From Candidatus Bathyarchaeota archaeon (GTDB lineage: Archaea; Thermoproteota; Bathyarchaeia; Bathyarchaeales; Bathycorpusculaceae): DNA of 64,000 nt. Under the pieces are notes generated by a model. It was not told the origin of the DNA, ran no database searches, and saw only the letters and a program-made list of their open reading frames with translations. This document shows positions 30,540 to 63,180 of the stretch, piece by piece (position 1 is the first letter of the stretch; every line of letters begins with the position of its first letter). A program made the translations under genes and the position numbers. The stretch is from positions 512,001 to 576,000 of the forward strand of contig OY970340.1 in NCBI GenBank assembly GCA_963717465.1, read 5' to 3'.

Positions 30540-30696
30540 ATTATTTGCCTCTTCAATGACTTGTTTGCTTTAATTTGTCTTTCTAATCGTATATCTTTGT
30601 ATTAATGACTTACGACTTACCAATTAAGGTCAAAAAACAGAATTTAAAAACTATAGTAACGATAAGTTTTTGAAAATAAAAAATTAGTCTCATGCA

Positions 30697-30744
30697 CCAT
30701 GGCACCACCCTGTTACCCTGAGGTGGTGCCATGGCGTTTTTTTT
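30697..30744. terminator. perfect 13-bp inverted repeat with a T8 tract on the + strand, between the two archaellins
   Basis: CCATGGCACCACC-N12-GGTGGTGCCATGG followed by CGTTTTTTTT. Confidence 0.6.
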
Positions 30745-30772
30745 AACCGAACGTGCCCTTGTGTTATCTTCT

Positions 30773-31651: not shown

Positions 31652-31655
31652 CTTA

Positions 31656-31685
31656 TACCACTTCTACTACTTCTACCACTTCTAC
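31656..31685. repeat. three tandem 9-bp repeats upstream of the zinc-ribbon archaellin
   Basis: TACCACTTC-TACTACTTC-TACCACTTC-TAC, ending 4 nt before the TTG start. Confidence 0.75.
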
Positions 31686-31850
31686 TTATAGTAGTTAGTA
31701 TTAAGTATTAAGATATACTATATTTAAACTTATTGCAAATAAGTATTCAAAAAACTAACCGTACTACACAAATACAAAATCATAATAGAAATCCATAACT
31801 AAAAAAATGATGGAAAAATAAGAACTGAAAAACTAAAACAAAATCAGAAC

Positions 31851-35074: not shown

Positions 35075-35086
35075 GCATGCACCTCC

Positions 35087-35788
35087 CTAGAGTTTTACGC
35101 CGCTAAGAGGCATTACTCGCAAGCCGATCTGAGAGCTAACTGCAAGAGTTATCGAGCTCTTTCTTTCACCGTTTACTCCCCAAAGCTTTATAGTTCTAAG
35201 TAATTTGACGTCTATTCCGGATATGCAAGCGTTTTCTAATACAAAGTAGGCGTCAGAGTTTGCTCTAAGTTTCATTATGGATTCTTCTGAAAGAAATTCA
35301 GGGTGAAACGTAATAACAACGGTCTTGTTATATGCGACTAGATTTTTTATTTTGGTGATGAACGTTAAGAACTCGTATAACGGTGTATCCATAGTTAAGA
35401 CGCTTAGGCTGTCGATAACAACAACATCATAATCGTGTTTTTTTGATTCAAGAAATTTCGTTATTATCATTAAAAAAAGAGCACTCTTTGACTTGCTCCA
35501 TCTTCCGCCCTCAACATGCAAAGGGAAAATTTTGAGGTAACCGTATAAATAGTAATTGTACGGGTCAAGCCTCACTGATTCCATCATTGAAAGATATTCC
35601 ATAGCCCTTGCTTCGCTTGAAATCACGTAAACTCTAGATTGATTCTTAAGCATCGCATGAACTATTTGCTGAACGAACACGGTTTTCCCAGAGCCATGAT
35701 CGCCTTCAACAAGCATTAGGCTGGGCGTCGGTATTCCACCACCGAGGTCCCTGTCCAATTCTGGAATGCCTAACTTCACTACTTTCAT
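35087..35788 (-). CDS. arlH: archaellum KaiC-like nucleotide-binding protein
   Basis: 'LGGGIP', 'EGDHGSGKT', 'IDSLS'. Confidence 0.92.
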   Translation of the reverse strand: MKVVKLGIPELDRDLGGGIPTPSLMLVEGDHGSGKTVFVQQIVHAMLKNQSRVYVISSEARAMEYLSMMESVRLDPYNYYLYGYLKIFPLHVEGGRWSKSKSALFLMIITKFLESKKHDYDVVVIDSLSVLTMDTPLYEFLTFITKIKNLVAYNKTVVITFHPEFLSEESIMKLRANSDAYFVLENACISGIDVKLLRTIKLWGVNGERKSSITLAVSSQIGLRVMPLSGVKL

Positions 35789-36312
35789 TGTGGACCAGCA
35801 GTCTCCCCTGTTGCTGTCACGCCATAGTAAGAAGCAAAGATTATGGATACAATGTCTTGGGATAAGATTTCTGGGGCTCCATCTGGAATACTCAGGGTAA
35901 TGTTGGCTTGTTCATCTGGATTTAAAACATTATGAGTTACTATGTTAAAGGTGGTGTTGGTACCTGAAATTCCGATTTCTGTTATTTGGTATCCTTCGAT
36001 TGCGTAAGAATTCACTTCTGAGCTGTTACCGTAGGTCAAGATTATTGTATTCCAATTGTAGCCGCTGGAATTTTGAAGGAATATTGTTGTTGACCCAATA
36101 TTCGTTACTGTAATGTTGCATGATGTGGCGCTTACTGAATTAACGGTCAATTGTATGTGTGTATTGAGTTTTTCTTGCTGAGTAGTTGCATAACCATTTG
36201 CTGTTACTGAGAGGTCATTGATACTTGTGAAAAAGACTGCTGAAACTCCGGTAAAGAACACCAAAAAGCCTATGAGCACTACAAACGAAGCTATCGCAAC
36301 AGAAAAACCCAT
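35785..36312 (-). CDS. arlF: archaellum stator protein ArlF-like
   Basis: 'MGFSVAIA' N-terminal TM, 'VTNIGST', 'LNPDE'; position directly before arlH. Confidence 0.7.
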   Translation of the reverse strand: MGFSVAIASFVVLIGFLVFFTGVSAVFFTSINDLSVTANGYATTQQEKLNTHIQLTVNSVSATSCNITVTNIGSTTIFLQNSSGYNWNTIILTYGNSSEVNSYAIEGYQITEIGISGTNTTFNIVTHNVLNPDEQANITLSIPDGAPEILSQDIVSIIFASYYGVTATGETAGPQ

Positions 36313-36321
36313 CTTTCAGCC

Positions 36322-36813
36322 TCATGTTAACGTTGAGAAGAGATAATCATTTCCAATTCCATTAGCAGGTACTACTTTAACTTCAAAAGTTGTGCCGTTA
36401 ATTGCCTCGGTTGGGTAAGCATATATGATTGCAGTTTCTCGCGGTTCCCATACTCCGTTCCCATTTGTGTCTACAATGTAGAACTTTCCGCTTCCTGCCA
36501 AAGCGTTTGAAGCATAATTATAGAGTTGGGCGCTGCCATAATTGCCAACGTAAACGTCCATATCCGCGTAATCGGTTATTGGAAGACTGCCTGTGTTCTT
36601 GGCGTATACTACAAAAACTGGTTGGCTCGTATTCGCTGTGGCATAAATTACTTGTACCTGCGTGTCCACGTTGTTTTTTGCGTTGTTAGCTTCTTGTGTC
36701 ACTTCATTCTGCACAATATTGCCAGTATAGAAGGCACAAGCAACAAAAGCACTTGCTAATATTACAGCACCTATAACCATAATTATGTGGGTTATGGTGA
36801 CTGAGAAGCCCAT
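36322..36813 (-). CDS. arlG: archaellum stator protein ArlG-like
   Basis: 'THIIMVIGAVILAS', 'YAKNTGS', 'DVYVG', 'WEPRET'. Confidence 0.75.
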   Translation of the reverse strand: MGFSVTITHIIMVIGAVILASAFVACAFYTGNIVQNEVTQEANNAKNNVDTQVQVIYATANTSQPVFVVYAKNTGSLPITDYADMDVYVGNYGSAQLYNYASNALAGSGKFYIVDTNGNGVWEPRETAIIYAYPTEAINGTTFEVKVVPANGIGNDYLFSTLT

Positions 36814-37502
36814 TTGTTGGTGCCTCTATTCGACTTCGGCTTTTTGTTGATCTGGTGTTCTGTCACTGCAACGAGTGTTTCCATATCAGCTGGGTCTAAG
36901 TCACTTTTTGTCAATGCAGCCGCTTTGTATAAGAATAACAGCAAATGTCCTTTACCTAAGCCTATTGACCTAAACTTTTCACACGTAACTGCTAAAGAAT
37001 AAATCAACTCGTTAGCTTGTGGCGCTACATAACCCATTAACTCGCATAAACGAGCTAATTCTCGAATATCGCCGGCAGCTAATCCAACGTCAAAAAGATC
37101 CCAAATCCAGTTAATATACTTCGACGCTACAATCGGCTTGACCACCGCTGACTGGGCAGGTTTGCTAGTTTCCTCGATCTGCGGAATCAAAGGTTCCAGC
37201 TTTTTGTCATCATTAGTTCTTGGTTTTCCCAAACTAATGGACTTTATACCCGGCGGGAGACTTTGGTTTTGAACATCTTCTTTCTCACTTGATATTGATT
37301 TCAAAACATTGAACGGATTCTCTATCTCAGTAACAGTAGCGCGTATGTTTGAAATGGATTTCTTGAGGTCACTAACTGAAGATTGAATTTCATTCGATAA
37401 TTCATCAATATCTGTTTTTAGCTCAACAATTTGGTTTTTTTCTTTGGCAGAGTTTGAAAAACTACCATTCTTTGCCTTATTATTATTTTCAACACTTTGC
37501 AT
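36792..37502 (-). CDS. probable ArlC/D/E-like switch protein
   Basis: Coiled coil ending in 'TEIENPFN' (ArlC-like), a low-complexity linker, then 'WIWDL...LCELMGYV' resembling the ArlD/E domain; first gene of the arl operon. Confidence 0.55.
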   Translation of the reverse strand: MQSVENNNKAKNGSFSNSAKEKNQIVELKTDIDELSNEIQSSVSDLKKSISNIRATVTEIENPFNVLKSISSEKEDVQNQSLPPGIKSISLGKPRTNDDKKLEPLIPQIEETSKPAQSAVVKPIVASKYINWIWDLFDVGLAAGDIRELARLCELMGYVAPQANELIYSLAVTCEKFRSIGLGKGHLLLFLYKAAALTKSDLDPADMETLVAVTEHQINKKPKSNRGTNKWASQSP

Positions 37503-37743
37503 AGCGTCGATATCATTATTTGCCAAACAGATTTCTCCTATGTAGTGATAATTTAAGTCGTTAGCGGTCATTATCTTAGGCAAAACCCTATATAATTTAT
37601 GAAGCCTGAATCAATATTGAGCCTGCAGCACGAATAAAAACGCAAAAGTAAAGAACACAACCCTGCTTAGATAGCCGTCCGTATCCGTGAACTTTAAATG
37701 CATGAGTCCAGAAAGTACACATCGAACAATAGGCGCTGATTAA

Positions 37744-38350: not shown

Positions 38351-39445
38351 ATGGAGAGGAAACAAGTGCCCAAAAACTATACTTACACTGAAGCAGGTGT
38401 AAATCGCAGCAAACGTGCAGAATCCAAAAAAGAATTAAAAACGCTGTTTGAGACCTACAAGCAGAGTTACTTCGGCGATGTTTTGCGTTTGCCATACGGT
38501 AACGTTTTTCCCATCGGCGCGAACACTTTCTTGGATTTAGTAATCGAGGGTGTAGGTACAAAAGTTCTCATGGCACAACTGGCAGAGAAGTATGACACCA
38601 TTGGCATTGATGCTGTTGCAATGGCTGTTAATGATGTAATACGTTCAGGTGCTAAACCGCTCGCCATCGCAGATAACATTCATGCTAAAGCCAGTGACCC
38701 TGCACTGGTGAAAGCGTGGCTGCAGGGTATCGCTAAGGGAGCTATTGAATCTGAATGTCCAGTTACAGGCGGAGAAATCGGCGACGTAGCTGAAATAATT
38801 AATGGAATTCGTGAAAACGTTGGTTTTGACCTGGTTGTCTCCTCCATAGGGCAAGTAAGAAGAAAAGATGTCATAACGGGAGAGAACATCAAAGTCGGTG
38901 ACCCGATTGTTGGTTTAGCAAGCAGTGGTGTGCATAGTAACGGCATAACCCTAGTGAGAAAGATTCTTTTTAAACAGTGGGGTGGAAAATACGAGCCAAC
39001 GGATGTCCCCCAAGGATTAGAAAGACAGGTTGCATTGGAAGTTCTTGAGCCAACAAGAATCTACGTGAAAGAACTTTTAGCATTAGCTAGAGAAGTAAAG
39101 ATTAAAGCAGCAGTACACATAACAGGCGATGCTTACAATAAATTCTTAAACTTGAGCAATTATTCGCCAGGCATAGGTTTCGAGTTCAGCAATTTTAAAC
39201 CGCAACCAGTTTTTGGCTTAATCCAAAGGACAGCAGAGGAATTGGGATACAATATCTCAGATGAGGAGATGTTCAAAACCTTCAACATGGGATGGGGCTT
39301 TGCCGTAATAGTCGACAAAAAGGACACGGAGAAAGCTGTAAACACTCTTGAAGAAGTCCATGCGGCGCCTGAAATCATCGGAAAAATCACTAAAACAGGT
39401 AAAGTGGAAGTGCACTTCAACAATAAAAAGATGATTTTAACCTAA
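38351..39445 (+). CDS. purM: phosphoribosylformylglycinamidine cyclo-ligase (AIR synthetase)
   Basis: 'YTEAGV', 'EGVGTK', 'IGIDAVAMAVND', 'SSGVHSNG', 'HITG', 'EMFKTFNMG'. Confidence 0.95.
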   Translation: MERKQVPKNYTYTEAGVNRSKRAESKKELKTLFETYKQSYFGDVLRLPYGNVFPIGANTFLDLVIEGVGTKVLMAQLAEKYDTIGIDAVAMAVNDVIRSGAKPLAIADNIHAKASDPALVKAWLQGIAKGAIESECPVTGGEIGDVAEIINGIRENVGFDLVVSSIGQVRRKDVITGENIKVGDPIVGLASSGVHSNGITLVRKILFKQWGGKYEPTDVPQGLERQVALEVLEPTRIYVKELLALAREVKIKAAVHITGDAYNKFLNLSNYSPGIGFEFSNFKPQPVFGLIQRTAEELGYNISDEEMFKTFNMGWGFAVIVDKKDTEKAVNTLEEVHAAPEIIGKITKTGKVEVHFNNKKMILT

Positions 39446-39502
39446 TCTTTGCTGTCTTTTTGATGAAAGCGTTTAAATCTTCTTCATCATAATTTTTAGC
39501 CC

Positions 39503-39754
39503 ATGAAATACGCTGCGAAAATCGAAGTTAGCCTAAAACCTGGCCATAGTAACCCAGAAGGCGAAACAACTGCACATTTACTAAAAGAATTAGGATACAG
39601 TGTAAAGGCTGTGGATGTAAGCAAAGTCTACATAGTTACCCTTGAAGCCTCAAACCGTGTGGAAGCCAAAGCCAAAGCGGAAGAGATGAGCAAACGGTTA
39701 CTGGCTAACCCGACTAAAGACAATTACTCGATAATTGTTGAGGAGCAAAAATGA
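39503..39754 (+). CDS. purS: FGAM synthase subunit PurS
   Basis: 'LKPGHSNPEG', 'LLANP', 83 aa. Confidence 0.92.
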   Translation: MKYAAKIEVSLKPGHSNPEGETTAHLLKELGYSVKAVDVSKVYIVTLEASNRVEAKAKAEEMSKRLLANPTKDNYSIIVEEQK

Positions 39755-42144
39755 ACACGAGCCTCATCTTTCGCGCAAAAAGACAAGTTGCTTTTTGAGG
39801 TAGTCATTGGCAGAAGCAAATGATGAGCAGCTTGTTGAAGTAAACAATGAGTTAAGTTTAGGTTTTAGCATTCACGAACTTAAAAACATTCAAGAGTATT
39901 TCAAGAAAGAGAACCGAAACGCCACAGACGTGGAGCTTCAAACCATCAGTCAAACTTGGTCAGAACACTGCTACCACAAAACCTTCAAGGGAAAAGTCAA
40001 AGTAGGCAACAAAGAAATTGATAGCCTCTTTAAAACTTACATTGCCAAGGCAACAAAAGAAATCAATCCGCATTGGTGCTTTAGTGTTTTTGAAGACAAT
40101 GCAGGAATAATCCGCTTTGACAAAGGCTTTGGAATAGCGGCAAAAGTTGAAACGCACAATCATCCCTCAGCTGTTGAACCTTTCGGTGGAGCAGCCACAG
40201 GCACAGGCGGCGTAATACGGGACATTCTTGGAGTATGGGCTGACCCAATCGCATGCACGGACGTGCTGGGTTTTGGACCTTTAGATTACGATTACCAAAA
40301 ACTGCCTGCAGGAATAAAACATCCTAAATACGTTTACAGGGGCGTTGTTTCAGGCATAGGCACTTATGGAAACAACATGGGCATTCCAACAGTTAACGGA
40401 GCAGTATATTTTGATGAGAGTTACACAGGGAACGTCATTGTTTACTGTGGATGCGTAGGACTTCTGCCGCTTGAAAAATACATTAAAAATGCGAAGCCAA
40501 ACCACATCGTTGTTTTAGCTGGTGGAAAAACAGGCAGAGACGGAATCCACGGCGTAACCTTCGCTTCAGCTGAATTAACAGAGAAATCAGAAGTAGTTTC
40601 TCGTCCTGCTGTGCAAATTGCGGATCCAATAGAGGAAGAAAAACTTAAACGTGCAATAATTGAGATTCGAGACCGTAGGATTAGGCTCTGCAACAACAGA
40701 TCTTGGCGGAGGAGGATTATCCTCAGCTCTTGGGGAAACAGCTGAAAAATACAATTGTGGAACAACCATTGACCTGGCGAAGATTCCGTTGAAGTATCAG
40801 GGTTTAGCACCTTGGGAAATTTACATTTCAGAATCTCAAGAAAGGATGCTGCTGACTGTTTCACCTGAAAACTTGGATGCTGTAATGGCGGTTTTCGAAA
40901 AAGAAGATGTACAAGCAACTGCAATAGGCACGTTGACAACTGAGCGCCGTTTAAAACTGAAATATCAGCAGCGAAGTTGTTGCGGATTTGGAAATGGATT
41001 TTCTTTTTAACCCAATTAAAACCACGAAAACCGCAGTAATCGAAAACGTCTGTTTCACTGAACCCGAATTTTCTGAGCCTACAAACTTAACTCAGACCCT
41101 ACTGCAATTGATTTCTGCTCCAAACATTGCCAGCAAAGAAAGCGTAATTCGCAGTTACGACCATGAAGTGAAGGGAAACACGTTACTTAAACCGTTGCAG
41201 GGCAAGTACGCTGGACCAAACGATGCAGCCGTGCTAAAACCACTTGACAGTTCATTGAAAGGCTTGGTTATTTCTTGCGGTATGAACCCGAATTACGGCA
41301 AAATCGACGCTTACTGGATGGCAGCTTCAGCCCTCGATGAGGCAGTGAGAAATAATGTTGCGGTTGGCGGCAGAAGAATTGCCTTGCTGGATAATTTCGT
41401 ATGGGGAAATCCTGAGAAACCAGAACGATTAGGCTCACTTGTAAGAGCCTGTGAAGCTTGTTATGATTTTGCCAAGATATTTAAGAACCCCCTTCATATC
41501 CGGCAAGGATAGCCTCTACAACGAATCCCCGCTTGGTCCAGTAACGCCAACATTACTGATAACAGCAATCGGTGTAATTCCGAACATTCAATCAACCGTT
41601 TCCATGGATCTGAAAGCACCTGGCAACGCACTCTACATAATAGGTGAAACATACAATGAGCTAGGCGGCTCCGAATACTACAAGCAAAAAGGCTTTCTCG
41701 GCGCAACAGTACCCAAAGGTACATGGTGGCAAAGCAAAAAAAACCTTTAAAGCGGTAACTAAAGCCATCGATTACGGCTTAATCAAGTCTTGCCATGACT
41801 TATCTGAAGGTGGATTAGCAGTTGCAGCTGCTGAGATGGCTTTTGCAGGCGGCTACGGATTAGAACTGGATTTAAAAAAGGTTCCAGGTAAGGGTTTTGA
41901 TAGAAATGATTTTGTTCTCTTTTCAGAATCAAACAGCCGTTTCCTGCTTGAAGTGGCAGAAAAGGAGAAAAAAGATTTTGAAGCCTTGATGAAAGGGAAA
42001 GTCTGCGTTCAAATCGGGAAAGTAACAAGAGAAGAAAAGCTTCTCATTCATGGGTTGGATGGATCGGTTGTCGTAGATGCTTCATTATCTAGCTTGATTG
42101 ATAGTTGGAAGAAAACATTAAGCAGCGAGGCGCAGCCAAGTTGA
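39751..42144 (+). CDS. purL: FGAM synthase subunit PurL; several frameshifts
   Basis: 'WSEHCYHK', '[20 protein letters not shown]', 'SESQERM', 'YDHEV', '[10 protein letters not shown]', 'HDLSEGG', 'LFSESNSRF' spread over consecutive frames. Confidence 0.93.
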
Positions 42145-42958
42145 AGCGGGAAGAAATTAAAATTTGCGTTCTACGAGTTGGAGGAACGAACTGTGACGCA
42201 GAAACCCAGCGGGCCATCCAAGAGTTTGGTGTGCAAGCCCAAGTTTTGCATGTTAACGAGTTAATAAAAAAGCCAAACCTTCTAGATTTTCATGCTTTGG
42301 TTTTTCCAGGCGGCTTCTCTTTCGGCGATTACGTGCGGTCAGGCGTGATTTTTGCCAGAATGCTTTCAGCAAAATTGGGAAAGGAAATGAACACTTTTGT
42401 CGATGAAGGCAGACCGATTCTGGGAATTTGCAACGGTTTTCAAATACTTGTTGAATACGGGTTACTTCCAGGCTTTGAAGGCATGAGCGATTACCCCGAA
42501 GCTTCGCTGGCCAAACAACCAGCCAAGGCTACAAATGCCAATGGATTCACCTTAGAAGCGAAAACAAGGGAAAATGCGTCTTTTCAAGCAAAATCCCAAC
42601 AGGCAAAATTCTACGAATGCCGATTGCACACGGTGAAGGGCGACTGCTGTTTCCAAAAGAGAAAGAAGAGAAAATGTTGGCTAAACTCATTGATGAGGAC
42701 ATGCTGGTGTTCCGTTACTGCGGTGAAAACGGTGAACCTGCAGAGGGGAAATACCCAATTAATCCAAACGGCTCATTCAGTGACATCGCTGGAATATGCA
42801 ATAAGGAAGGTAACATTTTCGGTTTGATGCCGCATCCTGAAAGAGCAATGTACTGGTGGCAACAACCCGACTGGACACGGCAAAAAAGAATGGCGCAGTT
42901 CGGTGATGGAAAACTGGTTTTTGAAAGTCTGATTGAAAATTTAGTGAAAAAGCCGTAA
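42141..42958 (+). CDS. purQ: FGAM synthase glutaminase subunit PurQ; frameshift near 42510-42620
   Basis: 'GTNCD', 'PGGFSFGD', 'LGICNGFQ', 'AHGEG', 'MPHPER'. Confidence 0.93.
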
Positions 42959-43853
42959 GTCTTCAGCTTTAGGCAAACCTTCGCGGGCTCCCATTTTCAT
43001 CACTGACCTTGAAGCAACAAAATTGCCCAGTCGCCCACATTCCTGCAGATTTTTCTCTTTAAGTAAACCATAGAGGAAGCCAGCGTTAAAGGCGTCACCA
43101 GCTCCGGTTGTATCAACAACCTTAACTTTGAATGACTCTATCATGAAGCGTTCATGCCCATCTGTAACGTAAGCAGCCATTGCTGCCAAGTTTAACGGCG
43201 ACAATTTTAACGCCTTTATCGATCATGAAGTCTGCACTTCTACTGTAGTCGTGTTCGCCCGTTAAAAGTTCAAGTTCAAACGCGTTTGGCAGCAGAAGAT
43301 AAGTCTTGTTTATAATCTCCTCTAAAGCCTCCATGCCTTTTCTCGCGTAAACTGCACCAGGGTCAAAACTTACTTTCACGCTATTGGGAAGGGCAGTAAG
43401 GAGTTTTTTTTGTGTTTGCATTGATTTTTCTCCGACAAAAGAGGTTAAATGGATAAACTTTGATTTGAAACCATAATCTTGGTTTATCTCTTCAAGGGAT
43501 ATCGTGTCGTTAACGCCTGAGTTAATGTACAGGGCTCTTGCACCTTTCTTGTCAACGAAGCCGAGCACTGAACCACTTTTTCCCGTGGCATGAATTATTC
43601 CGTTTGTGTTGACGCCTTCTTTTTCGAAGCCTTTGCAGAGAAATTCGCCTTCTCTATCGTCTCCGACTTTGCCTATGAAGCCTGCTTTGCAGCCAAGCCT
43701 TGCAAGTCCAACAATCGTGTTTGCTGCTGAGCCTCCGCATGCTTCAACGTAATCTTCAATGAAGCTTTCCTCTTCTGCTTTCGCGATACGGTTTACTTTG
43801 AAGAGCGTGTCAACGTTGAGTGCCCCAAAGCCTACAACATCAAAATTTGTCAT
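42941..43853 (-). CDS. PfkB/ribokinase-family sugar or nucleoside kinase (EhaT-like); one frameshift near 43180
   Basis: 'GALNVD', '[15 protein letters not shown]', 'GKVGDD', 'FDPG', 'PNAFE', '[12 protein letters not shown]'. Confidence 0.9.
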
Positions 43854-44761
43854 GGAAACAACTCACGCAATGATATTATGTAATCCCCCAGTTTACCGCC
43901 GTAATTGCCAGCAGAAACCTTGACAACTCCATCAACACCTAAAACAGCTTGAATACCTACTTTCGTAGCTTTTTTTACTGCATCCAAAGAAACTCCGTTT
44001 AACACTATCTCCGCAATGTAACCCACGCCTTTTGGAACTTGAGATTCACCAGCTAACCGTTCTCGGAGGCTGGGACAATACGGGTGATTAGTTGTAGGAC
44101 CTATCTGCGGGAAATGTGTTTCAGGCTTTGAGCCGGCAGAGCAAACATCAAAAGGAGTAACTACATCATTCACCTTGCGGATTGCCGCTAACGCTTTTTG
44201 AGAGGCTTTTTTGAAGGATTCTTTTGAAGTGCACATTATCCAAAAGTTGCCGCCCATAACGCCCCTTGCATACCCTAAGTATCGTTCAATGATGAAGTCT
44301 GGAACCATTAGTGGAACAACGATTACTTCTCTGCCATAACGGTTTTCAACCCATTCGTAACCGTCTCCGCAGTGGCCCACACGCTCCATCATATCCAGTT
44401 TTCCCTCAGGCGAAGGCAAAGCGTCAAAAACAGCGGTGAAAGGCTTGACAAGTATATCTTGACGAATTCGATAGGAGAGTTCAGCTTCAAACTTTTTCAG
44501 TGATTCAGCGAATGTTTTTTTTGGGTTTATTGCACCCCAGAACTGCACTAAGGCGCCTTTACGTTTATCAGGCGTTTCCTTTTCGCTTAGCCACCGTTCT
44601 ATTCCACCTTCAACTCTGCCGATAACAACCGATGGTGTTGCAGTTGAATCCTCAGCAGCCTGCCTAAGGGTCTGTTCATCATCCGCCGTTACAATAAACC
44701 TGCAATATATTCCAGCAAACGCCTCAGCATAAGTATCCTCAACTAAGGGTTTTTTAACCAT
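43850..44761 (-). CDS. ftr: formylmethanofuran:H4MPT formyltransferase-like protein (divergent Ftr, EhaS type)
   Basis: Intact 303-aa ORF: 'EDTYAEAF', 'ETPD', 'GDGYE', 'GGNF', 'TN..YCP.L', 'EIVLNG', '[10 protein letters not shown]'. Confidence 0.92.
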
Positions 44762-45834
44762 TCATCCAAGCCTCCCAATTGCTACTCCGCGAACTTTCTT
44801 GCGAAATTCGCTGCTCTCTTTAACTAACGATTCCATATTTTGAGGAGTTACTATTTGAACTTTGGGAAAAACAGCCAATTCTTTCAGCAAAGTTTCACCT
44901 ATGCCTAAGCTGCTTGAGCAGTTTAGGAGACCATGATTTGATTGCATCCAACGTTTTGGCTTTTCCCAATTTACAGAAAATCTCCATGATAACAGCAGTC
45001 ACAAGGTTACTTTCAGATAAAACGGCGATTTGAGCGTTTTTTACTGCGTAACCGTTACCGTTAAAGGAAACCGTTAATCCATCATGACTCATTCACAAGT
45101 TTGAAGGCTTCAACATCAGTTATGCTGTCGCCAACATACAATACATCCTCTAATTTAGCTTCCAAGCGTTTTACTGCGTCTTGGATGGCTTCAGCTTTCT
45201 GCTGTCCACCAACAGTTGTCACCTCAGCAAAAATTCTTCCAACACTCATTCTTGGGATTTGCACCCAGAAAATCTCGTCAAGCCGCCTCAAGGTTTCTTG
45301 GTCTTTTTGGGAAAAGTCCTTGATGGATTTTGCTTCTTTGGGAATTTCGATTAGTGGCATTTGAGCAATTTCCAAAGCAATCATCTGCAAATCGTCGTTT
45401 CTTCTTCCGTTGTTGCTTGGTATTTGTTAAGGCAGAGTTTAGTGCAGTAAGTGTTCTTGTATGGAAACGTTAAAGCCTTACACAGAGGCTTTAGGTAATG
45501 CTCGTAACTTGTACTGACAATGAATGAGTCAGAAATCTCTTGAATATGACTCATGGTTTTTTTGCTGTCTGCAATCAAAACGATGTGTTCTGCAGAGAAA
45601 TCTTCCATCTGTTTATCGCTTACTTTGGTAAGCCTTGAAAAAGGGCAAAATCAACTTTAAAGTGCTGCCTGCAGTGTAACCTGGTTTTTGCAGTACATCT
45701 GCAAGTACATCATCATACTTGCTTATGTTAGTAAATAATTTTTCGCCTTCTGGAATAAAATGTGCTGCTAACTCGAATGCATTATCATTCTTGGATATTG
45801 GGCCTTCACAATCGGATACGAAGATGCGCTTCAC
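44762..45834 (-). CDS. HAD-like hydrolase (EhaR-like); about 4 frameshifts
   Basis: Starts at GTG 45834 with '[19 protein letters not shown]' (HAD motif I variant); also 'YDDVL', 'IVSTSYEHY' (motif II), 'VGGQQKA' (motif III), 'YVGDSITD' (motif IV), 'SFNGNGYAV', 'RKKVRG..IGRLG'. Confidence 0.8.
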
Positions 45835-45836
45835 GC

Positions 45837-47246
45837 TTAGCGCCTCAAATGCTCCATGTGGCTTACACTTTTTGCAATATGTGATTTTGAAGCTATGTCT
45901 GATCGGTTCCAAAGTGCGCCGCCAGTGATAGCTTTGGCGCCTTCTTGAGAGATTTGGCGTGCTTCCTCGATGGTTTTGCCTACGCCTAGAACGCCGACGG
46001 TTCTTGACTTCAGAGTCCAGTTCTTGCCATCGTTTGTTTCCATTGAGCCAGGGTAAATGCGGATTCTATCACCGTATTTACTTGTCAATGCGTAAGCTTT
46101 TGAGAGGTCAATTGGAGTATGTAACTGCTGATTTATCCACTTTGTCTGGATAAACTTCTTTATAGCCGCCGTAGTCTGATGGCACTTTGTAAGTTAACAC
46201 GGTTGCTGCATTCTCAACTTGCAGACTGGTCAGGTTGCCCTCAATCATTTTGAAGCAGACATCGACAAAATCATCCTTTATTATTGGCAGTATATTGATG
46301 ATTTCAGGGTCTCCTGGGCGACTGTTGTTTTCAAGAACTTTAATGCCTTTGCCAGTATGCATGAAGGCAAGATACAAGGGCACGCCGCGTAAAGCTGAAG
46401 CGTCCTTAATTTGCGATTGCCATCCATTAAAGATTTTTTAGCTAACTCAATTTCATGTTTTCGTTCTGCTTTAGTTAGGAAAGGCAACTTGCCATCTGCA
46501 TCTTTGTAGGAGCCCATTCCTCCAGTGTTTGGGCCCTTATCATCATCAAAAGCCCGTTTATAATCGCGAGTATCAGGTAACGGAATAAAGTGTTTTCCGT
46601 CGCAAAAAGCCATGAAGCTGGATTCTTCTCCATCTACTTTTTCCTCGATTATCACTGAGCCGTACTGGAAGTTTGATAGAGAAATACTCAAAAAGTTCTT
46701 CTCTTGTGGTAAAATGGTCGCCCCAAACGCCGACGCCTTTTCCTGCAGCAGGCTTATCAGGTTTCACTACTGCTTGGTTGTCCAGTTCATCAAGCCATTT
46801 ATAGACGTCTTTTTTGACTTCATCTTTGCCTTTGTAATCGTTTGGGTTGAAAATCTTGAAACGCGGGTTTGCTTCTGGCGCTATCTCTTGAAACAATAAA
46901 CGTTGCTTTACCTTGCTTTCTTCTATGGCGTATTCTTGCTTGGGACAAATTACAGGTATTCCAGTTTGCTTTTCGACGAGGTCTCTTATGCCGTCGATTA
47001 TTGGTTTTTCAGAACCAACTAGCGCAAAATCAATGTTGCCTTGTTTTCTTTTGCAAACTTGCAAATTTGAGCAACATCCAAGTTGGGGATAACAACATGT
47101 TTAACGGCTTTTTCAACGTTGAATGGGTTACGTTGTTTATCGGCAATGTACAAGTCTACTTTGTATTTTTGGCTTCTTGCAAGTGCATCAACCATGGCAG
47201 CTTCTCTTGACCCATAGGAAACAACTAACACGCCAATCTTTTCCAT
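45837..47246 (-). CDS. purD: phosphoribosylamine-glycine ligase (GAR synthetase); about 4 frameshifts
   Basis: 'GSREAA', 'IEESK', '[11 protein letters not shown]', 'IEEKVDGEE', '[18 protein letters not shown]', '[10 protein letters not shown]', 'RSDI'. Confidence 0.93.
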
Positions 47247-47289
47247 AAGAGACAACCTGTACCTGCATAGTTTAGCATGAACGCTTAAT

Positions 47290-48789
47290 TTACTTTGTCA
47301 CGGTTCGGGATTCGGGGGTTTCATCCATTTCGTAAATTCGTGTTTTTTCTTGGTAGCCGTTTTCGAATTTCTTTTTCATTTCATCAGCCATTTGCTGTGC
47401 GAGGGGTGTTGGGTACTTGCCAGTTATGCAAGCTAAGCATAATTGGTCGCGGGTTTTGCCTGTTGAACGTATTAGCGCCTCAATGGATTGGTAGCAAACG
47501 TTGTCTGCGCCTATAATTTTGGCAATTTCTTGAGCGTTATGTTTTGAACCGACGAGTTGTCCGTAAGTTGACATGTCAATTCCGTAGAAGCAGGGACCGA
47601 TTATTCTGGGAAAAGTCACGAAAACATGTACTTTCTTAGCGCCTGAACGACGCAGTTTATCAATTATAACTTTTGTTGTATCTCCACGAACGATGCTGTC
47701 TTCAGTTACTATTACACGTTTACCGTCAACTTTTGAACCTAAAATGTTAATTTTCTTATCAATCGTTAAGAAACGCTCATTGTTTAATAGTATGAAGGCT
47801 CGCTCAGTTACGTACCTGTGCCGCCTTGACGCTCGCTCCCATCGCAGTCCCGAGGCTTCATGTACCCCCATAGCGGGATCATCGCCGGTTTCAGGTATTG
47901 AAAGTATAATATCTCCATCTTTGGCAATTTCAGGATACTCTTTCACTATGTTTCGTCCGAAGTCTTCTCGGATTTCATACACATATTTTCCATTGAATTT
48001 TGAATCAGGTCTTGCAAAATATGCATATTCAAACGCGCAGAAAGCTTCTCGGGGATTCTTGATTAATTGTTCCCGTTTAAAGCCGTCTTTTGTAACTGTT
48101 ACAAGTTCACCAGGGTTAAGCTCGAAGTCTCGTACAAGACTATTCATGTCTAAACTTACTGTTTCAGAGGAAAAAGCAAAAGTTGCCCCGTCAAGTCCAT
48201 GTCCAGCACATAAGGGTTTTATTCCATGTGGATCTTTGAAGGCAAAGAATTCGCCTTCGCCTGTTATTCCAGTTACGGAGAATGCGCCGTCTAAGACTTC
48301 CATGCAGGATTGAACGGCAGATTTTAGGTCTTTTCCCTCTTTAAGCCCTAAGAGAAGTTTGTGGCAGAGTATGTCCGAATCGCATGTGTAATTAAAGTCT
48401 GGGAAGTTTTGGTCCATTTCTTTTTTTAATGGCGCAGTATTAACTATGTTGCCGTTGAATGATAACGCGATTTTTATTTTACCTTCTGAGGCTGTAACTG
48501 GCTGAGTCCCTTTAATCAGGGAGGATTCATCGCATTTACCTGACGTTGTGTATCGAACATTGCCGATGCCTATGGATCCTGGCAAGCGCCCGAACCATTC
48601 ATTTATTGCACTGGTTTTTATTTTTGGAACTAAATCGAGGTTTTTGTAAATGTAAAATTGCTTGTTGTTGTATGTTAGAAAGCCGTGTGATTGGTGACCT
48701 CTGTGATTTTGGGCTCTTAGCCCCCAATAAACGTATGGAAAAACAGGTATGTTTTCGAAGTTTATTGCACCAAAGATACCGCAGCCTAT
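47290..48789 (-). CDS. purF: amidophosphoribosyltransferase; no canonical start codon before the catalytic Cys
   Basis: The frame extends 66 codons upstream of the ORF-track start to 'CGIFG...QNHRG'. Also 'FNGNIVN', 'CAFEYAYFARPDS', 'EDSIVRGDT', 'PCFYGID', 'CLACITGKYP'. Confidence 0.95.
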   Translation of the reverse strand: MGCGIFGAINFENIPVFPYVYWGLRAQNHRGHQSHGFLTYNNKQFYIYKNLDLVPKIKTSAINEWFGRLPGSIGIGNVRYTTSGKCDESSLIKGTQPVTASEGKIKIALSFNGNIVNTAPLKKEMDQNFPDFNYTCDSDILCHKLLLGLKEGKDLKSAVQSCMEVLDGAFSVTGITGEGEFFAFKDPHGIKPLCAGHGLDGATFAFSSETVSLDMNSLVRDFELNPGELVTVTKDGFKREQLIKNPREAFCAFEYAYFARPDSKFNGKYVYEIREDFGRNIVKEYPEIAKDGDIILSIPETGDDPAMGVHEASGLRWERASRRHRYVTERAFILLNNERFLTIDKKINILGSKVDGKRVIVTEDSIVRGDTTKVIIDKLRRSGAKKVHVFVTFPRIIGPCFYGIDMSTYGQLVGSKHNAQEIAKIIGADNVCYQSIEALIRSTGKTRDQLCLACITGKYPTPLAQQMADEMKKKFENGYQEKTRIYEMDETPESRTVTK

Positions 48790-49295: not shown

Positions 49296-49890
49296 ATGAA
49301 CTACAATAACATGCACAAATTGCTAAAGAACCGCGTAGCACTCAGCCACTGTCGTAACCACACTTATCATCCTAGTCATTGCAGTCCTGCTCGCCAGCGT
49401 AGTCACATACTTCGCTATCAACGTAGTCAGCACAAGAGTTCAAGAAGAAAGCTTAGCTCTAACAAAACAACACGTTTGGTACAACGCAACTGATGGATCC
49501 ACCCAAGCAGCCTTATTGATAATTAACACTGGCGGTAGAGACGTAGTCATACAGAAGTTTGCCGTCCGAGGACAAAACGTAAACTGGGCCAATGTTACCT
49601 ATGCCACCACGACAGAGTCAATAGCCGCTGACCTATTATGCAACTGCAGCTCACAAGATGGTCAAGGCATACAAGCAGGTTCCTTCACAATAGGAACAAC
49701 AGATCCAGCAAATGTAACAATGTATACGGCTGCTGATTCACTAACACTGCGATCAGGTTACACAATGGTACTCTACATTAACGGCCCAGACAGCATCACA
49801 ATCAACGACGTAGGCTTAACCGTAAGCATAACCCTCAACACAGCCCAAGCAATGTACTACGTGGAAAGTAACGTACAAGCAATAAATTAA
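49296..49890 (+). CDS. type IV pilin-like protein (probable major pilin); +1 frameshift near 49347
   Basis: GGAGGTGA at 49279-49286. Removing one C gives 'KNRVA|LSTVVTTLIILVIAVLLASVVTYFAINV', a paralog of 50052..50609. Confidence 0.8.
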
Positions 49891-50051
49891 AAGCAGCAAA
49901 CAGCGCAAATTAAGAAACAATAAATGATACAAAGCAAGATCACCCAAGTTTTTTTCATTTTTTTCTTCTATCAAAAAAGTATGTAACTTTATTCTACGCA
50001 CAAATTTACATATCAAAAATTTGAGTTAATTGATTTTTCAAGTGAATAAAA

Positions 50052-50609
50052 ATGAGAAATATACTAAGAAATCGTTTGGCTTTAAGTACAGTCGTAACAA
50101 CTTTGATTATCCTTGTCGTTTCAGTGCTACTCGCAGGAGTCGTAACCTACTTTGCAATCAACGTAACCAGCACCAGAGTGCAAGAAGAAAGTTTATCGCT
50201 TACTAAGCTTCACGTATGGTGTCCAGCAAACAGCTCTCTAAGCCCTCAAGCAGCATTCTTGATAATTAACACTGGCGGACGCGACGTAGTCATACAAAAA
50301 ATGACGGTCAGAGGACAAGCAGCCGATTGGACTAACGTCTTCTACAACACTACAGGTTCATCGGTGACAAGTGACTTCACATACGTTAATTCTGTAGCAG
50401 CCAGCTCCTCAGTCAACATAACCGCTTCAAGCACTGTTACATTATCTGCAGCTACAGGCGAGTTAACTTTGGATTCAGGTAAAAGCATGGTTGTCTTCAT
50501 TTCCAGTCCAGACAGCATCACCATCAACGACATCGGCCTGACTGTTGGTATAACAGTCTTCACCTCGCAAGCAATGTACTATCAAGAAGCCAACGTACAA
50601 GCAGCTTAA
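50052..50609 (+). CDS. type IV pilin-like protein
   Basis: Basic leader 'MRNILRNRLA' followed by the hydrophobic helix 'LSTVVTTLIILVVSVLLAGVV'. Confidence 0.85.
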   Translation: MRNILRNRLALSTVVTTLIILVVSVLLAGVVTYFAINVTSTRVQEESLSLTKLHVWCPANSSLSPQAAFLIINTGGRDVVIQKMTVRGQAADWTNVFYNTTGSSVTSDFTYVNSVAASSSVNITASSTVTLSAATGELTLDSGKSMVVFISSPDSITINDIGLTVGITVFTSQAMYYQEANVQAA

Positions 50610-50825
50610 ACAAAATCTTCATAACAACCCCCACATCCTTTCTTTTTTTGTTATATTTTAAAACTTGTAAATTCTACAAAAATAAAATTAACAATTCAGA
50701 AATTTTTTCTAAAAAATGAAGCCAGCATAAAGATTTTCAATAACTATCTGTAATTTTTTTTACGCACAAACGCTTAATCCACTTTTTTAAAGAAAGACTA
50801 CGTAAGGCAATAGGAAGATACTAAT

Positions 50826-51659
50826 TTGAAAAGATTGACGAAGACGAAACTTGGATTTCATCATTCGAAAAAAGCGCTAGCTGTTCCTGTTACCTTCATG
50901 ATTCTTTTCGTGACATCTTTGGGTCTGATCTCAGTTATGTATTATTTTTCGGTGGAAAGGATAAACTCTCAAAGCACTACTTTAGAGGCTTCAACGGCAA
51001 AACAGGACATGATGTCGTTGGATCAAGCCATTTTATCTGCTGCATGGCAACCTGGCTCCTCAAGAGTGATAGACATTAGAGATTCAGGAGGGGAAACAAA
51101 CATCCAACCATTAACTAACGATTTATCAATCAGCGTCACCGATGACGTGAACATTAGCCAAGTTATATACAATCAAACGATTGGGCAAGTCATCTATGAC
51201 CTCCCAAGCACATATTCAGCCGACATAGGCTTATACCTTTCAGGAGACGGCCGCACTATCATAAACGATAGCAGTTCCGTCATGACACAACTCTACATCA
51301 CTAATGTTGGTGAAGGACCTGAAATTTCACTATGCTATCGCCCAGAGGTATCGTACTTCACAAGCGGACAAGAAAATGGTGAAACCGTTAACGACCTGCG
51401 AATTTACATAATCAACCTGAACAGTTCAGACGCATTCGAGTTGTATGGTGAACTCCCGCTTAAAGTATCATGCGAATCAATTCAAACATCAACCTTAGCT
51501 TACAACGTTTCAAACAGCACTCAAGTCTTAAGCATAACATCAGTTTTAAACGGGGCATCAGGCCAAATTTCCGTTCCAATTTCGAGCACTGATAACGGGG
51601 CAATAATCAACGTGGAAATGGTTGTTTGCAACCTGAACATCACGAGGTGCGTGATTTAA
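50826..51659 (+). CDS. minor pilin-like protein
   Basis: 'SKKA|LAVPVTFMILFV' class III-type signal. Confidence 0.75.
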   Translation: MKRLTKTKLGFHHSKKALAVPVTFMILFVTSLGLISVMYYFSVERINSQSTTLEASTAKQDMMSLDQAILSAAWQPGSSRVIDIRDSGGETNIQPLTNDLSISVTDDVNISQVIYNQTIGQVIYDLPSTYSADIGLYLSGDGRTIINDSSSVMTQLYITNVGEGPEISLCYRPEVSYFTSGQENGETVNDLRIYIINLNSSDAFELYGELPLKVSCESIQTSTLAYNVSNSTQVLSITSVLNGASGQISVPISSTDNGAIINVEMVVCNLNITRCVI

Positions 51660-52107
51660 ATGCCGACAATCATTCCAGGTTACGTATACTCGATTTTTGC
51701 TTCAATCCTAGTTGGTGCCATAATAATTTGTGCCATAGGCGTCGTTTCAACAAATATTGAACAATCCACTGAAAAACAGCAGTTATCAAACCTTGCAGGA
51801 TACGTTGCTACAAAAAGCCTTGAACTAATCGACCAATCAATCGCCAGCAACACGAACTCCACCGTTCAATTAAACCTGCCAACATCCATCGGAAATCAAC
51901 AATACTGGATTTCAATTTCCAATGACTCAGCCAGTACAATGGGTGGAAGTAGGTTTTGGACCAAACGTTGTTTCCAGTGAGCAGCAAGCGTACATACCCT
52001 CAGAAGTTTCTGCTTCAGGTGTATATCTAAGCACTTCAGGCGCAGCTAGTCTGGAATGCTATTCAGACGTTTCCGGAATACATTTAACAATTTACGGAGG
52101 AAACTAA
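51660..52107 (+). CDS. pilus-associated protein with N-terminal TM; one frameshift
   Basis: ORFs 51660..51980 and 51922..52107 join; abuts both neighbours. Confidence 0.7.
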
Positions 52108-53688
52108 ATGCCATTTGGAAAAAAGAAAAATGAAGAAGAACAAGAAAAAGAGAAAATATCCGAAGAAGAATTAATAGGCTATTTAGGTATTCAAGGTGCC
52201 CGTGTACCCGAAGGGTACATACAGATCGAAAGTTACCCACTTAAACCGCCTTTCTCTTACGCTTGGATATTCCAAGATGAGTCTGACGGAAGCATGTTTT
52301 ATGTCGTGGACGAATTAACACTGTCTGTTGAGGAAAGGGACGCCTATAAGCGGTTAAAAAACATTTTAGAATATGAATTAAAAGCCCCCAAAATAGATGA
52401 GACTCTTGATGATTCATTCCATAGACAATTACCTCAAATAATGAAGGATCATGAGAAAGTCCTTTCTGGAATCAATCAAATAGGCATTAAGAAAATTACT
52501 TACTATCTCGAAAGGGATCTTATAGGATTTGGGAAAATAGACGCTTTGTTTTCCGACCCCTACATAGAAGACATCAGCTGCATAGGAGTTAATAAGCCAG
52601 TTTACCTTTGGCACAGAAAATATGAAAATGCTCGAACCAACATAATTTTCATAGAAGAAGAATACTTGGATGATTTCGTAACAAGGATAGTACACCGACA
52701 AGGCAAACATGTTAGCATTGCACACCCAATCGTGGACGTAACTCTTCCAGGTAAACACAGACTCGCAGTATCCTTTGGAAAAGAAACAACCCCAGCTGGA
52801 ACAAGCTTCACAATAAGAAAATTCAGAGAAGACCCATTAACAATCGTAGATTTAATTATGAATGAAACAATCGATGAAACAATCGCTGCCTACCTTTGGA
52901 TGCTTATGGAAAGCAAAATGTCCGCAATGATTGTTGGCCCCACAGGAGCAGGAAAAACAACAGCACTAAACGCGATTGCCTGCCTAATAAAACCAGACTA
53001 CAAAATCATCTCAGTCGAAGAAGTCGCTGAAATCAATCTTCCACAAGAAAACTGGGTTTCAACCATCGCCAGACAAGGATTTGGAGGAGACAAAGAAGGA
53101 GAAGTCTCACTTTACGAACTTATCAAATCAGCAGTCAGGCACCGACCTGCACTCATCCTGATAGGCGAGGTTAGAGGTGAAGAAGCATATGTCTTATTCC
53201 AAGCCTTAGCTACAGGTCACGGTGGAATCTGCACCATGCACGCTGAAGATGTTGAAACAGCCATAAAACGTCTGAACCAGCCACCAATGAATATTCCTCA
53301 AGGAGTCATTCCGCTTATGAACTGTGTGATAGTCGTCAAACAAAATAAAAACCCAAATTTCATTGCAATAGACAAGAAAGCTTCAAACAGAAAATTTGTT
53401 AGAATCTCAGAAATAAACCCGAGCGGAGCAATACATGATGTCTTCCAGTGGAACCCATCTTCCGAAACATTCACGCAGAACCTGGAGCAGAGTTATCTGC
53501 TTTCAAGAATAGCTAAAAACCTTGATGTTCCAATTGGAGTCGTTCTTCAAGAGATTGAAAGACGAGAAAAAATCTTGCTGAAGATGATTGAAAAGAACAT
53601 GCGCGACTTCCGAAGTGTACACAAAGCGCTAAACAGCACGGTAATATTGCCAGAATTAGAGATCAAAGAAACAGAAACGGAGCAATAA
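52108..53688 (+). CDS. type II/IV secretion ATPase (PilB/TadA-like)
   Basis: 'GPTGAGKTT', 'VRHRPALILIGEVRGEE', 'TGHGGICTMHA'. Confidence 0.93.
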   Translation: MPFGKKKNEEEQEKEKISEEELIGYLGIQGARVPEGYIQIESYPLKPPFSYAWIFQDESDGSMFYVVDELTLSVEERDAYKRLKNILEYELKAPKIDETLDDSFHRQLPQIMKDHEKVLSGINQIGIKKITYYLERDLIGFGKIDALFSDPYIEDISCIGVNKPVYLWHRKYENARTNIIFIEEEYLDDFVTRIVHRQGKHVSIAHPIVDVTLPGKHRLAVSFGKETTPAGTSFTIRKFREDPLTIVDLIMNETIDETIAAYLWMLMESKMSAMIVGPTGAGKTTALNAIACLIKPDYKIISVEEVAEINLPQENWVSTIARQGFGGDKEGEVSLYELIKSAVRHRPALILIGEVRGEEAYVLFQALATGHGGICTMHAEDVETAIKRLNQPPMNIPQGVIPLMNCVIVVKQNKNPNFIAIDKKASNRKFVRISEINPSGAIHDVFQWNPSSETFTQNLEQSYLLSRIAKNLDVPIGVVLQEIERREKILLKMIEKNMRDFRSVHKALNSTVILPELEIKETETEQ

Positions 53689-53691
53689 CAA

Positions 53692-60815: not shown

Positions 60816-60837
60816 AAAATCTACCTTAAATTCAAAG

Positions 60838-63168: not shown

Positions 63169-63180
63169 GGCAAGAAAACA

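Follow-up and report, generated by a model that had tools for sequence, protein, structure and literature searches.

Purine-linked EhaR, EhaS and EhaT orthologues in a Bathyarchaeia genome are candidates for the missing glycinamide ribonucleotide formylation step

A purine gene cluster with an embedded three-gene module

We analyzed a 64,000-nucleotide stretch of a Candidatus Bathyarchaeota archaeon genome (GCA_963717465.1, contig OY970340.1, positions 512,001 to 576,000; hereafter, the window) and focus here on three adjacent minus-strand genes (hereafter, the trio) that encode a phosphatase of the haloacid dehalogenase (HAD) family, a paralogue (Ftr2) of formylmethanofuran:tetrahydromethanopterin (H4MPT) formyltransferase (Ftr, with Ftr1 denoting the canonical form), and a kinase of the PfkB/ribokinase family. 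The trio lies in a purine biosynthesis cluster and, judging from sequence comparisons, most likely supplies the third step of the pathway, the formylation of glycinamide ribonucleotide (GAR) to formylglycinamide ribonucleotide (FGAR), in place of PurN or PurT. The genes of the cluster, by window position, are:

47290..48585, minus strand: purF (amidophosphoribosyltransferase), the first gene of the minus-strand run
45837..47255, minus strand: purD (GAR synthetase), directly upstream of the HAD gene; five open reading frame (ORF) pieces in the assembly
44762..45834, minus strand: EhaR-family HAD phosphatase (AF1437 / PDB 1Y8A family), ~360 amino acids, four frame breaks; proposed GAR 5'-phosphatase
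43850..44761, minus strand: Ftr2 / EhaS, paralogue of formylmethanofuran:H4MPT formyltransferase, 303 amino acids, intact, with Ser211 and Glu251; proposed GAR-step formyltransferase
42941..43853, minus strand: EhaT-like PfkB / ribokinase-family kinase, ~303 amino acids, one break; proposed formylglycinamide-riboside kinase
38351..42958, plus strand: purM-purS-purL-purQ (post-FGAR steps), convergent with the trio; purL and purQ broken by indels

The minus-strand run, in the order purF-purD-HAD-Ftr2-kinase, thus meets the plus-strand run purM-purS-purL-purQ, with the 3' end of the kinase gene overlapping that of purQ. The purD stop lies 2 bases ahead of the HAD start (a GTG at 45834), the HAD stop at 44762 abuts the Ftr2 ATG, and the Ftr2 and kinase genes overlap by 4 bases. 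The trio maps to 0.555-0.558 Mb of the source genome (G000; contig C1), which is a single 3.05-Mb contig, 88% complete and indel-rich, and close homologues of the Ftr-like protein carry Bathyarchaeia names.

The HAD frame is broken near 45628, 45395, 45090 and 44905, and the kinase frame near 43173. Because purL, purQ, purD, purB and the canonical Ftr gene of the same genome show breaks of the same kind, and because most loci of relatives are intact (frames of at least 250 amino acids for the HAD in 25 and for the kinase in 24 of 30 loci), these breaks are most likely assembly indels. The pattern extends to housekeeping genes in general (window 38351-48585; e.g., C1:1030000-1046000; his-like genes too), some of which are indel-split and others intact, and resembles that of an unpolished long-read assembly.

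Orthology to EhaR, EhaS and EhaT

The initial annotation had pointed out the gene order HAD-like, Ftr-like, ribokinase-like in the absence of hydrogenase and antiporter genes, likened it to the last three genes (ehaR, ehaS, ehaT) of the eha operon of Methanothermobacter, and proposed an independent metabolic module rather than hydrogenase subunits; our results confirm the gene order and the absence of hydrogenase genes and support the interpretation. Pfam searches of 68 ORFs of the window returned no hydrogenase or antiporter family. The order is identical to that of the eha tail, with the trio following ehaN-ehaO-polyferredoxin-like genes in Methanobacterium oryzae and Methanobrevibacter; that is, M. 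oryzae and six Methanobrevibacter loci have a small subunit, a large subunit, two polyferredoxin-like genes, HAD, Ftr2 and kinase in succession. When the M. oryzae proteins, standing in for those of Methanothermobacter, were searched against the source genome, each of the three matched best at the window trio (Ftr2 with 61% identity, the kinase with ~50%, and the HAD), and M. oryzae Ftr1 matched best the other Ftr, at 1.038 Mb. The forward genome-wide search, which covered the HAD and Ftr but not the kinase, found one HAD and two Ftr proteins (61% vs. 36% identity) in genome G041. By these comparisons, the window HAD, Ftr2 and kinase are orthologues of EhaR, EhaS and EhaT, respectively, and members of the HAD family indeed bear the source name 'energy-converting hydrogenase A subunit R'.

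According to the relevant passages of Kaster 2011 (PMC3087415), EhaS and EhaT were initially annotated as Ftr and ribokinase, and their co-transcription with ehaA-R in Methanothermobacter was judged to make those functions 'very unlikely'. (In the same passages, the second Ftr is named EhaS once and EhaT elsewhere, and the table gives MTH403 as Ftr.) One could accordingly regard the three proteins as genuine components or accessory factors of the Eha hydrogenase, which they might link to CO2 reduction, with the window copy serving a distant group-4 hydrogenase, and the source genome does encode a large subunit of group 4 in which both CxxC motifs are present. However, among its NiFe large-subunit matches (C1:1.198, 1.603 and 1.706 Mb), the sole group-4 type, at 1.197 Mb, is ~640 kb away from the trio, which in turn sits inside a pur cluster, and has no trio genes beside it. 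We also scanned for the HAD by motif, which misses divergent members, and assessed 80 metagenome and 80 named genome loci among the matches listed; many of these loci end at contig edges, and the pur tallies may include a few asparagine-synthase-like matches. Within 6 kb of the HAD, a pur gene was found in 46 metagenome and 36 genome loci, and a hydrogenase large subunit in only 1 and 9, respectively, such that the great majority of the sampled homologues are without eha linkage (10 of 160 listed loci being eha-linked). The labels 'purF' near the trio in two loci (L228, L403) turned out to be asparagine-synthase-like and were dropped. Even among Methanobacteriota, four of nine further loci carry the trio with no eha gene in 13-14 kb, and one more stops at a contig edge. 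Since the family is also pur-linked in Bathyarchaeia, Asgard and bacteria, and the EhaS proteins of Methanobacteriales are nested among Bathyarchaeia Ftr2 (below), we consider a role as hydrogenase subunits barely credible. A contig titled Bacteroidaceae (L197, CAVDAS010000017.1) with a Methanobrevibacter-like eha operon and the trio is probably mis-binned.

Catalytic features of the three proteins

Ftr2 is homologous to Ftr along its whole length (33-43% identity to Ftr1; structures PDB 1FTR/2FHJ, 1M5H, 1M5S, and FhcD 6S6Y), and both Ser211, which we take to be catalytic, and Glu251 are invariant across 25 Ftr1 and 44 Ftr2 sequences. The corresponding Glu is catalytic in FhcD (Hemmann 2019, PMC6926001, in the part concerned), and only Ftr1 has been characterized so far according to the relevant passages of Chadwick 2022 (PMC9012536). 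The window protein passes the cut-off of NCBIfam model PRK02114 (335 bits vs. 297) but does not reach that of TIGR03119 (231 vs. 292.6 bits). Ftr2 differs from Ftr in lacking the Pro-Gly loop that precedes the Ser and the GxGTSxIxC segment, in having rebuilt loops around the catalytic residues, in its own invariants (Trp75, Glu94, Cys131, Trp174, Cys207 and Pro222, plus a near-invariant Arg100), and in being accompanied by the HAD and the kinase. In a quick-search tree built from 69 Ftr proteins, Ftr1 and Ftr2 formed separate clades with 100/100 support.

It is conceivable that Ftr2 is simply an Ftr isoenzyme of the Wood-Ljungdahl or methanogenesis branch with incidental neighbors, given the PRK02114 score, the retained Ser and Glu, and five Halobacteriota genomes (G056, G067, G071, G077, G121) in which, at E<=1e-30, Ftr2 was matched but Ftr1 was not. 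A canonical Ftr1 is, however, also present in the source genome at C1:1.038 Mb, the two clades differ by many fixed switches around the active-site loop, and the complementarity with PurN and PurT described below is not expected of an isoenzyme, which makes this explanation very improbable. The five genomes may retain the purine paralogue after loss of the catabolic Ftr1, which bears on the identity of the formyl donor.

In the same tree, the EhaS clade of Methanobacteriales falls among Bathyarchaeia Ftr2, and an approximately unbiased (AU) test on 30 rows rejected the grouping of the Bathyarchaeia-type rows without the EhaS clade (p 9e-16). Because the tested group was defined after the tree was viewed, we take this nesting only as a hint of gene transfer. 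Separately, five Halobacteriota genomes (G089, G050 and G081, at loci L320, L321 and L322, and G061 and G072) encode Ftr2 proteins 65-73% identical to the window protein, with no PurN and no PurT found; G089 and G050 are sister to the window Ftr2 in the tree (97), and transfer of the formyltransferase from Bathyarchaeia is likely.

The HAD carries motifs I-IV (Asp nucleophile, Ser/Thr, Lys and GDxxxD) of a C1-cap, SerB-like phosphatase, and these positions are well kept among 120 family members (D8 85%, S107 92%, K212 98%, D235 89%, D239 100%). Its only relative with a solved structure in the family is AF1437 of Archaeoglobus fulgidus (PDB 1Y8A), which it resembles both in sequence (E 8.6e-30) and in predicted fold (TM-score 0.81/0.92 for the model of a relative's HAD); the archaeoglobal locus seen (L179) differs in having no pur linkage. 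After AF1437, the nearest folds of the model are phosphoserine phosphatases. The kinase shows the ribokinase motifs N-x-D, GGxxxN and GAGD, present in 151, 149 and 162 of 165 PfkB frames, respectively, and shares family and ribose-binding motifs with nucleoside/riboside kinases such as MJ0406 (PDB 2C49) and a Salmonella enzyme (PDB 1TYY), although it scores below every NCBIfam equivalog cut-off. The Salmonella enzyme is, we assume, the aminoimidazole riboside kinase, which would be a precedent for riboside phosphorylation in purine metabolism. Two further occurrences of the HAD stand out: a divergent EhaR-family HAD and kinase adjoining a RuBisCO-like gene in G060 (L351:496-4090; 414 bits, under the form III cut-off), and the sole contig of the viral collection with the HAD motif (L051:2747-2824, IMGVR_UViG_3300003886_000013), in a gene after a UvsW-like helicase, which may be a purine-module gene carried by a virus or else a piece of host DNA.

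Distribution relative to PurN and PurT

The relevant passages of Brown 2011 (PMC3261824) list no GAR formyltransferase for Archaeoglobi, Methanothermobacter, Methanosphaera, Methanobrevibacter and Methanopyrus (and write 'four Methanomicrobiales' for species that belong to Methanobacteriales), and those of Chadwick 2022 (PMC9012536) add the anaerobic methanotrophic archaea of group ANME-1. The latter article also describes uncharacterized Ftr2 paralogues in ANME-1, ANME-2a/2b, Archaeoglobales, Methanopyrus and Methanothermobacter; its passages on the missing enzyme and on Ftr2 stand apart and are not connected. Our literature search, with most subscription journals outside its reach, found no publication assigning EhaR/S/T to GAR formylation.

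The source genome fits this picture in that no PurN, no PurT above background and no PurN-like, PurT-like or purH match was found in it, and the window trio itself has no Formyl_trans_N or PurT ATP-grasp homology. The genome does encode Mch, Ftr1 and two purP-like genes, the last located together with purE at C1:2509306-2513135; purC was not found with two queries in this incomplete and indel-rich assembly. Ftr2 was found in 38 of 40 relatives, and PurN above cut-off in none of 27 Bathyarchaeia and none of 23 other genomes (a Methanobacteriota draw plus G043 and G045).

Among Halobacteriota, we examined one draw of 91 genomes (90% completeness requested) with thresholds of at least 274 bits and at least 49% identity for Ftr2, at most 204 bits for Ftr1, and at least 142 bits for PurN. 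Ftr2 was present in 40 of the 91, PurN in 43, the HAD in 44, and PurT in 10 of the 54 searched. The HAD count includes four divergent members (G049, G060, G071, G080) first scored as negative, and other HAD-negative scores may likewise be misses. Cross-tabulation gave 38 genomes with Ftr2 and the HAD only, 2 with Ftr2, HAD and PurN, 4 with HAD and PurN, 37 with PurN only, 10 with PurT only, and 0 with none of these. That is, all 51 Ftr2-negative genomes have PurN (41) or PurT (10), and 38 of the 40 Ftr2-positive ones are without both, with the HAD present in 40/40. We attach no p-value to this profile because related genomes are not independent. Overall, Ftr2 was present where PurN and PurT are absent and the rest of the pathway is present; as exceptions, G052, G063 and the Asgard genome G240 have both.

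In our assessment, the swaps seen within Bathyarchaeia weigh more than the Halobacteriota counts. Two genomes without Ftr2 (G010, G034) are also those in which purD was not found; G181, with neither HAD nor Ftr2, has purD and a PurT-like gene (245 bits); and G213, in which Ftr2 was not searched, has purF-purD-PurN-like, with HAD-kinase-folD and purH elsewhere. These exceptions fit a function of the trio in GAR formylation. More broadly, the HAD was found in 46/46 Methanobacteriota and 0/52 Thermoproteota outside Bathyarchaeia, in 13/56 and 10/41 bacterial genomes (two draws), and Ftr2 in 4/4 HAD-positive Asgard genomes tested. Canonical PurN and PurT were each absent from all 23 HAD-positive bacteria, while PurN was found in 26 of the 59 HAD-negative ones searched (of 74). 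Some HAD-positive bacteria (e.g., G246, G247, G288) showed no PurN-like partner among the matches listed.

Gene neighborhoods, partner exchange and fusions

In 15 of 16 larger Bathyarchaeia loci, purD immediately precedes the HAD gene. Within 3 kb of the HAD, the scanned metagenome and genome loci contained Ftr2 (41 and 38 loci, respectively), PurN-like (16 and 11), PurT-like (0 and 1) and PfkB kinase (44 and 55) genes; the position next to this HAD that Ftr2 otherwise occupies can thus be filled by a divergent PurN-like or PurT-like protein. Bacterial arrangements include purM-PurN-like-HAD-kinase-purH (L083), purL-purF-kinase-PurN-like-HAD-purH (L116) and purM-kinase-PurN-like-HAD (L317, L318), and two Asgard genomes have purL-purF-purD-HAD-kinase-purE-purB-purM, with Ftr2 at a separate site. 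In addition, fusion proteins join the HAD to a PurN-like domain (P0192) or to PurT-like domains (P0193, P0210).

These exchanges also bear on whether the trio acts on some other purine intermediate, such as by providing formate or formyl-phosphate for PurP, in the 5-aminoimidazole-4-carboxamide ribonucleotide (AICAR) step, or in a thiamine, benzimidazole or cofactor side branch. ATP-dependent formate chemistry (PurP) does operate in these archaea (PMC3087415, in the passages concerned), and the divergent HAD-kinase pair of G060 has its RuBisCO-like neighbor. However, the AICAR step seems covered by the two purP-like genes in the source genome and by purH beside the bacterial modules, the alternative partners (PurN-like and PurT-like) both belong to GAR enzyme families, and the distribution complements PurN and PurT specifically; we therefore find such a role quite improbable.

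The PurN-like loop

The divergent PurN-like family of the HAD-positive bacteria also occurs in many HAD-negative ones, which allows the two sets to be compared. The catalytic Asn, His and Asp of the family align with those of E. coli PurN (His108 and Asp144 are named as PurN residues in the part of Brown 2011, PMC3261824, concerned). All PurN-like proteins of HAD-positive loci or genomes have an R-D loop, mostly R-D-x-A-A, and the 17 HAD-negative loci fetched comprise 13 with a Gly loop (R-G-x-G-S in most), 2 with a different PurN variant and 2 unclassed ones. In an alignment of 31 HAD-positive and 12 HAD-negative distinct proteins, only three columns separate the groups, all in the N-terminal loop: Asp in 31/31 vs. 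Gly in 12/12, Ala in 29/31 vs. Gly in 10/12, and Ala in 31/31 vs. Ser in 11/12. The R-D and R-G types are intermixed in the FastTree tree. Because the Asp loop coincides with the presence of a phosphatase and a ribose-type kinase, an Asp in this presumed phosphate loop points to a riboside substrate. Three HAD-linked PurT-like proteins, too divergent to align with PurT, show GRIIG (two) or SRRIIG (one). For PurT itself, we assume that Lys355, Arg362 and Arg363 bind the phosphate; the residues are listed in Brown 2011 (PMC3261824; relevant passage).

A simpler scheme would have Ftr2 formylate GAR directly, alone replacing PurN or PurT, with the HAD and the kinase clearing or salvaging intermediates (a nucleotide/riboside cycle or metabolite repair). 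Several observations speak for it: Ftr2 complements PurN and PurT more cleanly than the HAD does, the HAD also occurs alongside canonical PurN (G240, G356), the new Ftr2 invariants, Arg100 included, could bind phosphate, and the genes are frequently unlinked. We nonetheless regard direct formylation as unlikely, since the HAD is kept in every Ftr2-positive Halobacteriota genome and Ftr2 accompanies it in all HAD-positive Asgard tested, HAD fusions involve two formyltransferase folds that are unrelated to each other, and the PurN-like loop varies with the presence of the HAD.

Proposed route and its assessment

We infer every substrate, the formyl donor and the order of steps in the following scheme. 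The HAD would strip the 5'-phosphate from the GAR made by PurD, Ftr2 would move a formyl group from a carrier of the methanopterin system onto the amine of glycinamide riboside, and the PfkB kinase would rephosphorylate the formylated riboside to FGAR, for use by PurL/Q/S. GAR and methanofuran each have a primary aminomethyl group as formyl acceptor, and Ftr uses the N5-formyl form of H4MPT. The likelier donor would be N5-formyl-H4MPT, with the riboside in the site of the methanofuran amine, the alternative being formyl-methanofuran; we lean, with reasonable but not strong confidence, toward the H4MPT form. The formyltransferase would be exchangeable: archaea with methanopterin would use Ftr2, folate-using bacteria and some archaea a PurN variant, and, rarely, a PurT-like protein would serve. 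Accordingly, PurN (EC 2.1.2.2) and the formate-dependent PurT share with Ftr2 the proposed net reaction and the operon slot, but differ in that the fold and donor of Ftr2 are unrelated and that PurN and PurT act alone on the nucleotide, whereas the probable substrate of Ftr2 is the riboside and two further enzymes would assist it.

Moving a formyl group from H4MPT to the furan amine costs +4.4 kJ/mol (PMC6926001, in the part concerned), and therefore phosphate hydrolysis and an ATP-driven pull would help. Purine C8 derives from acetate C2 in M. stadtmanae but not in M. smithii (Brown 2011, PMC3261824, in the labeling passage), which fits a serine-fed H4MPT donor.

The assignment to the GAR step rests on orthology, gene order, fusions, complementary distribution, conserved catalytic motifs and loop co-variation; provided that it is correct, the riboside detour is likely. 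Taken together, we give the full reading, in which the trio performs the GAR step through the dephosphorylated riboside, a probability of roughly 0.58.

Several observations weigh against it. First, with regard to chemistry, formylation from 10-formyl-tetrahydrofolate requires no pull by ATP, which leaves the bacterial form unexplained by the thermodynamic argument, and motif I of the HAD is D-x-E (the second acid being Glu in 89%), not D-x-D. The role of the N-terminal loop as the GAR phosphate binder of E. coli PurN is our assumption, for which we found no confirming paper, and the loop argument is borrowed from the PurN-like proteins for Ftr2 because no HAD-less Ftr2 turned up. Second, with regard to distribution, kinship among genomes makes the counts overstate independence, the PurT search left out 37 HAD-negative, PurN-positive Halobacteriota, and the trio genes are often scattered outside Bathyarchaeia and Methanobacteriota. 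Two Halobacteriota (G052, G063) hold Ftr2, HAD and PurN together, and four others (G062, G082, G090, G097) have the HAD, the kinase and an above-cut-off PurN, with an altered loop, and no Ftr2. PurN is also present in 3 of the 9 HAD-positive Asgard genomes (in two pieces in G367), the one such PurN that was read (G240) has the canonical loop, and 12 of 22 HAD-negative Asgard genomes show no PurN, with PurT and purD not searched in this group. Finally, from the passages concerned, the prevailing belief is that N10-formyl-H4MPT does not donate formyl groups (Brown 2011, PMC3261824), and both Ftr2 and PurN are reported in ANME-2a/2b (Chadwick 2022, PMC9012536).

The altered loop of the four Halobacteriota PurN proteins (L340-L343, for G062, G097, G082 and G090, respectively) reads SSWGGN, with the HAD and kinase genes adjacent in G062 and G097, and is perhaps another route to a riboside-acting PurN.

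A still broader reading, for and against which we see about equal odds, is that of an unrecognized, horizontally mobile route for step 3, in which GAR would be dephosphorylated, the riboside formylated by any of three unrelated and interchangeable formyltransferases (methanopterin-type Ftr2, Asp-loop PurN, or a PurT-like protein), and the product rephosphorylated. This route would be shared by Bathyarchaeia, Methanobacteriales, Methanopyri, Archaeoglobi, ANME-1, some Asgard and several anaerobic bacterial lineages.

Other features of the window

The purine region is flanked by an archaellum-type cluster on the minus strand (29916-37583; flagellin-family genes, a secretion ATPase and a KaiC-like ATPase) and, on the other side, a type IV pilus-like cluster on the plus strand (49516-55090); cheY- and cheD-like genes are located at 62800-63816. 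The minus strand also carries an AbrB/MazE-like antitoxin and PIN-domain pair (1634-2362), a cluster of MoxR AAA, DUF58/vWA and transglutaminase-domain genes (7987-15012), and a second, CbbQ-like AAA and vWA cluster (59118-61863). A PIN-like gene, recognized from its translation, follows the kinase in two relatives (L002, L012).

Implications

Since 2011, Methanobacteriales (gut methanogens among them), Archaeoglobi and Methanopyrus have been on record as having no identified GAR formyltransferase, with ANME-1 a later addition, and there are now candidate genes for it. With the folate-type trio of bacteria, the mechanism can be tested in E. coli, where no archaeal coenzymes would be needed. 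If the reading proposed here is true, the three 'Eha subunits' would be purine enzymes that landed behind the eha operon, and the EhaR/S/T labels would have to be corrected, together with many 'second Ftr' genes counted as markers of methanogenesis or the Wood-Ljungdahl pathway. Further, the methanopterin C1 pool would feed purine C8 directly and thus be tied to nucleotide synthesis, and a riboside-level detour would be added to the textbook purine pathway.

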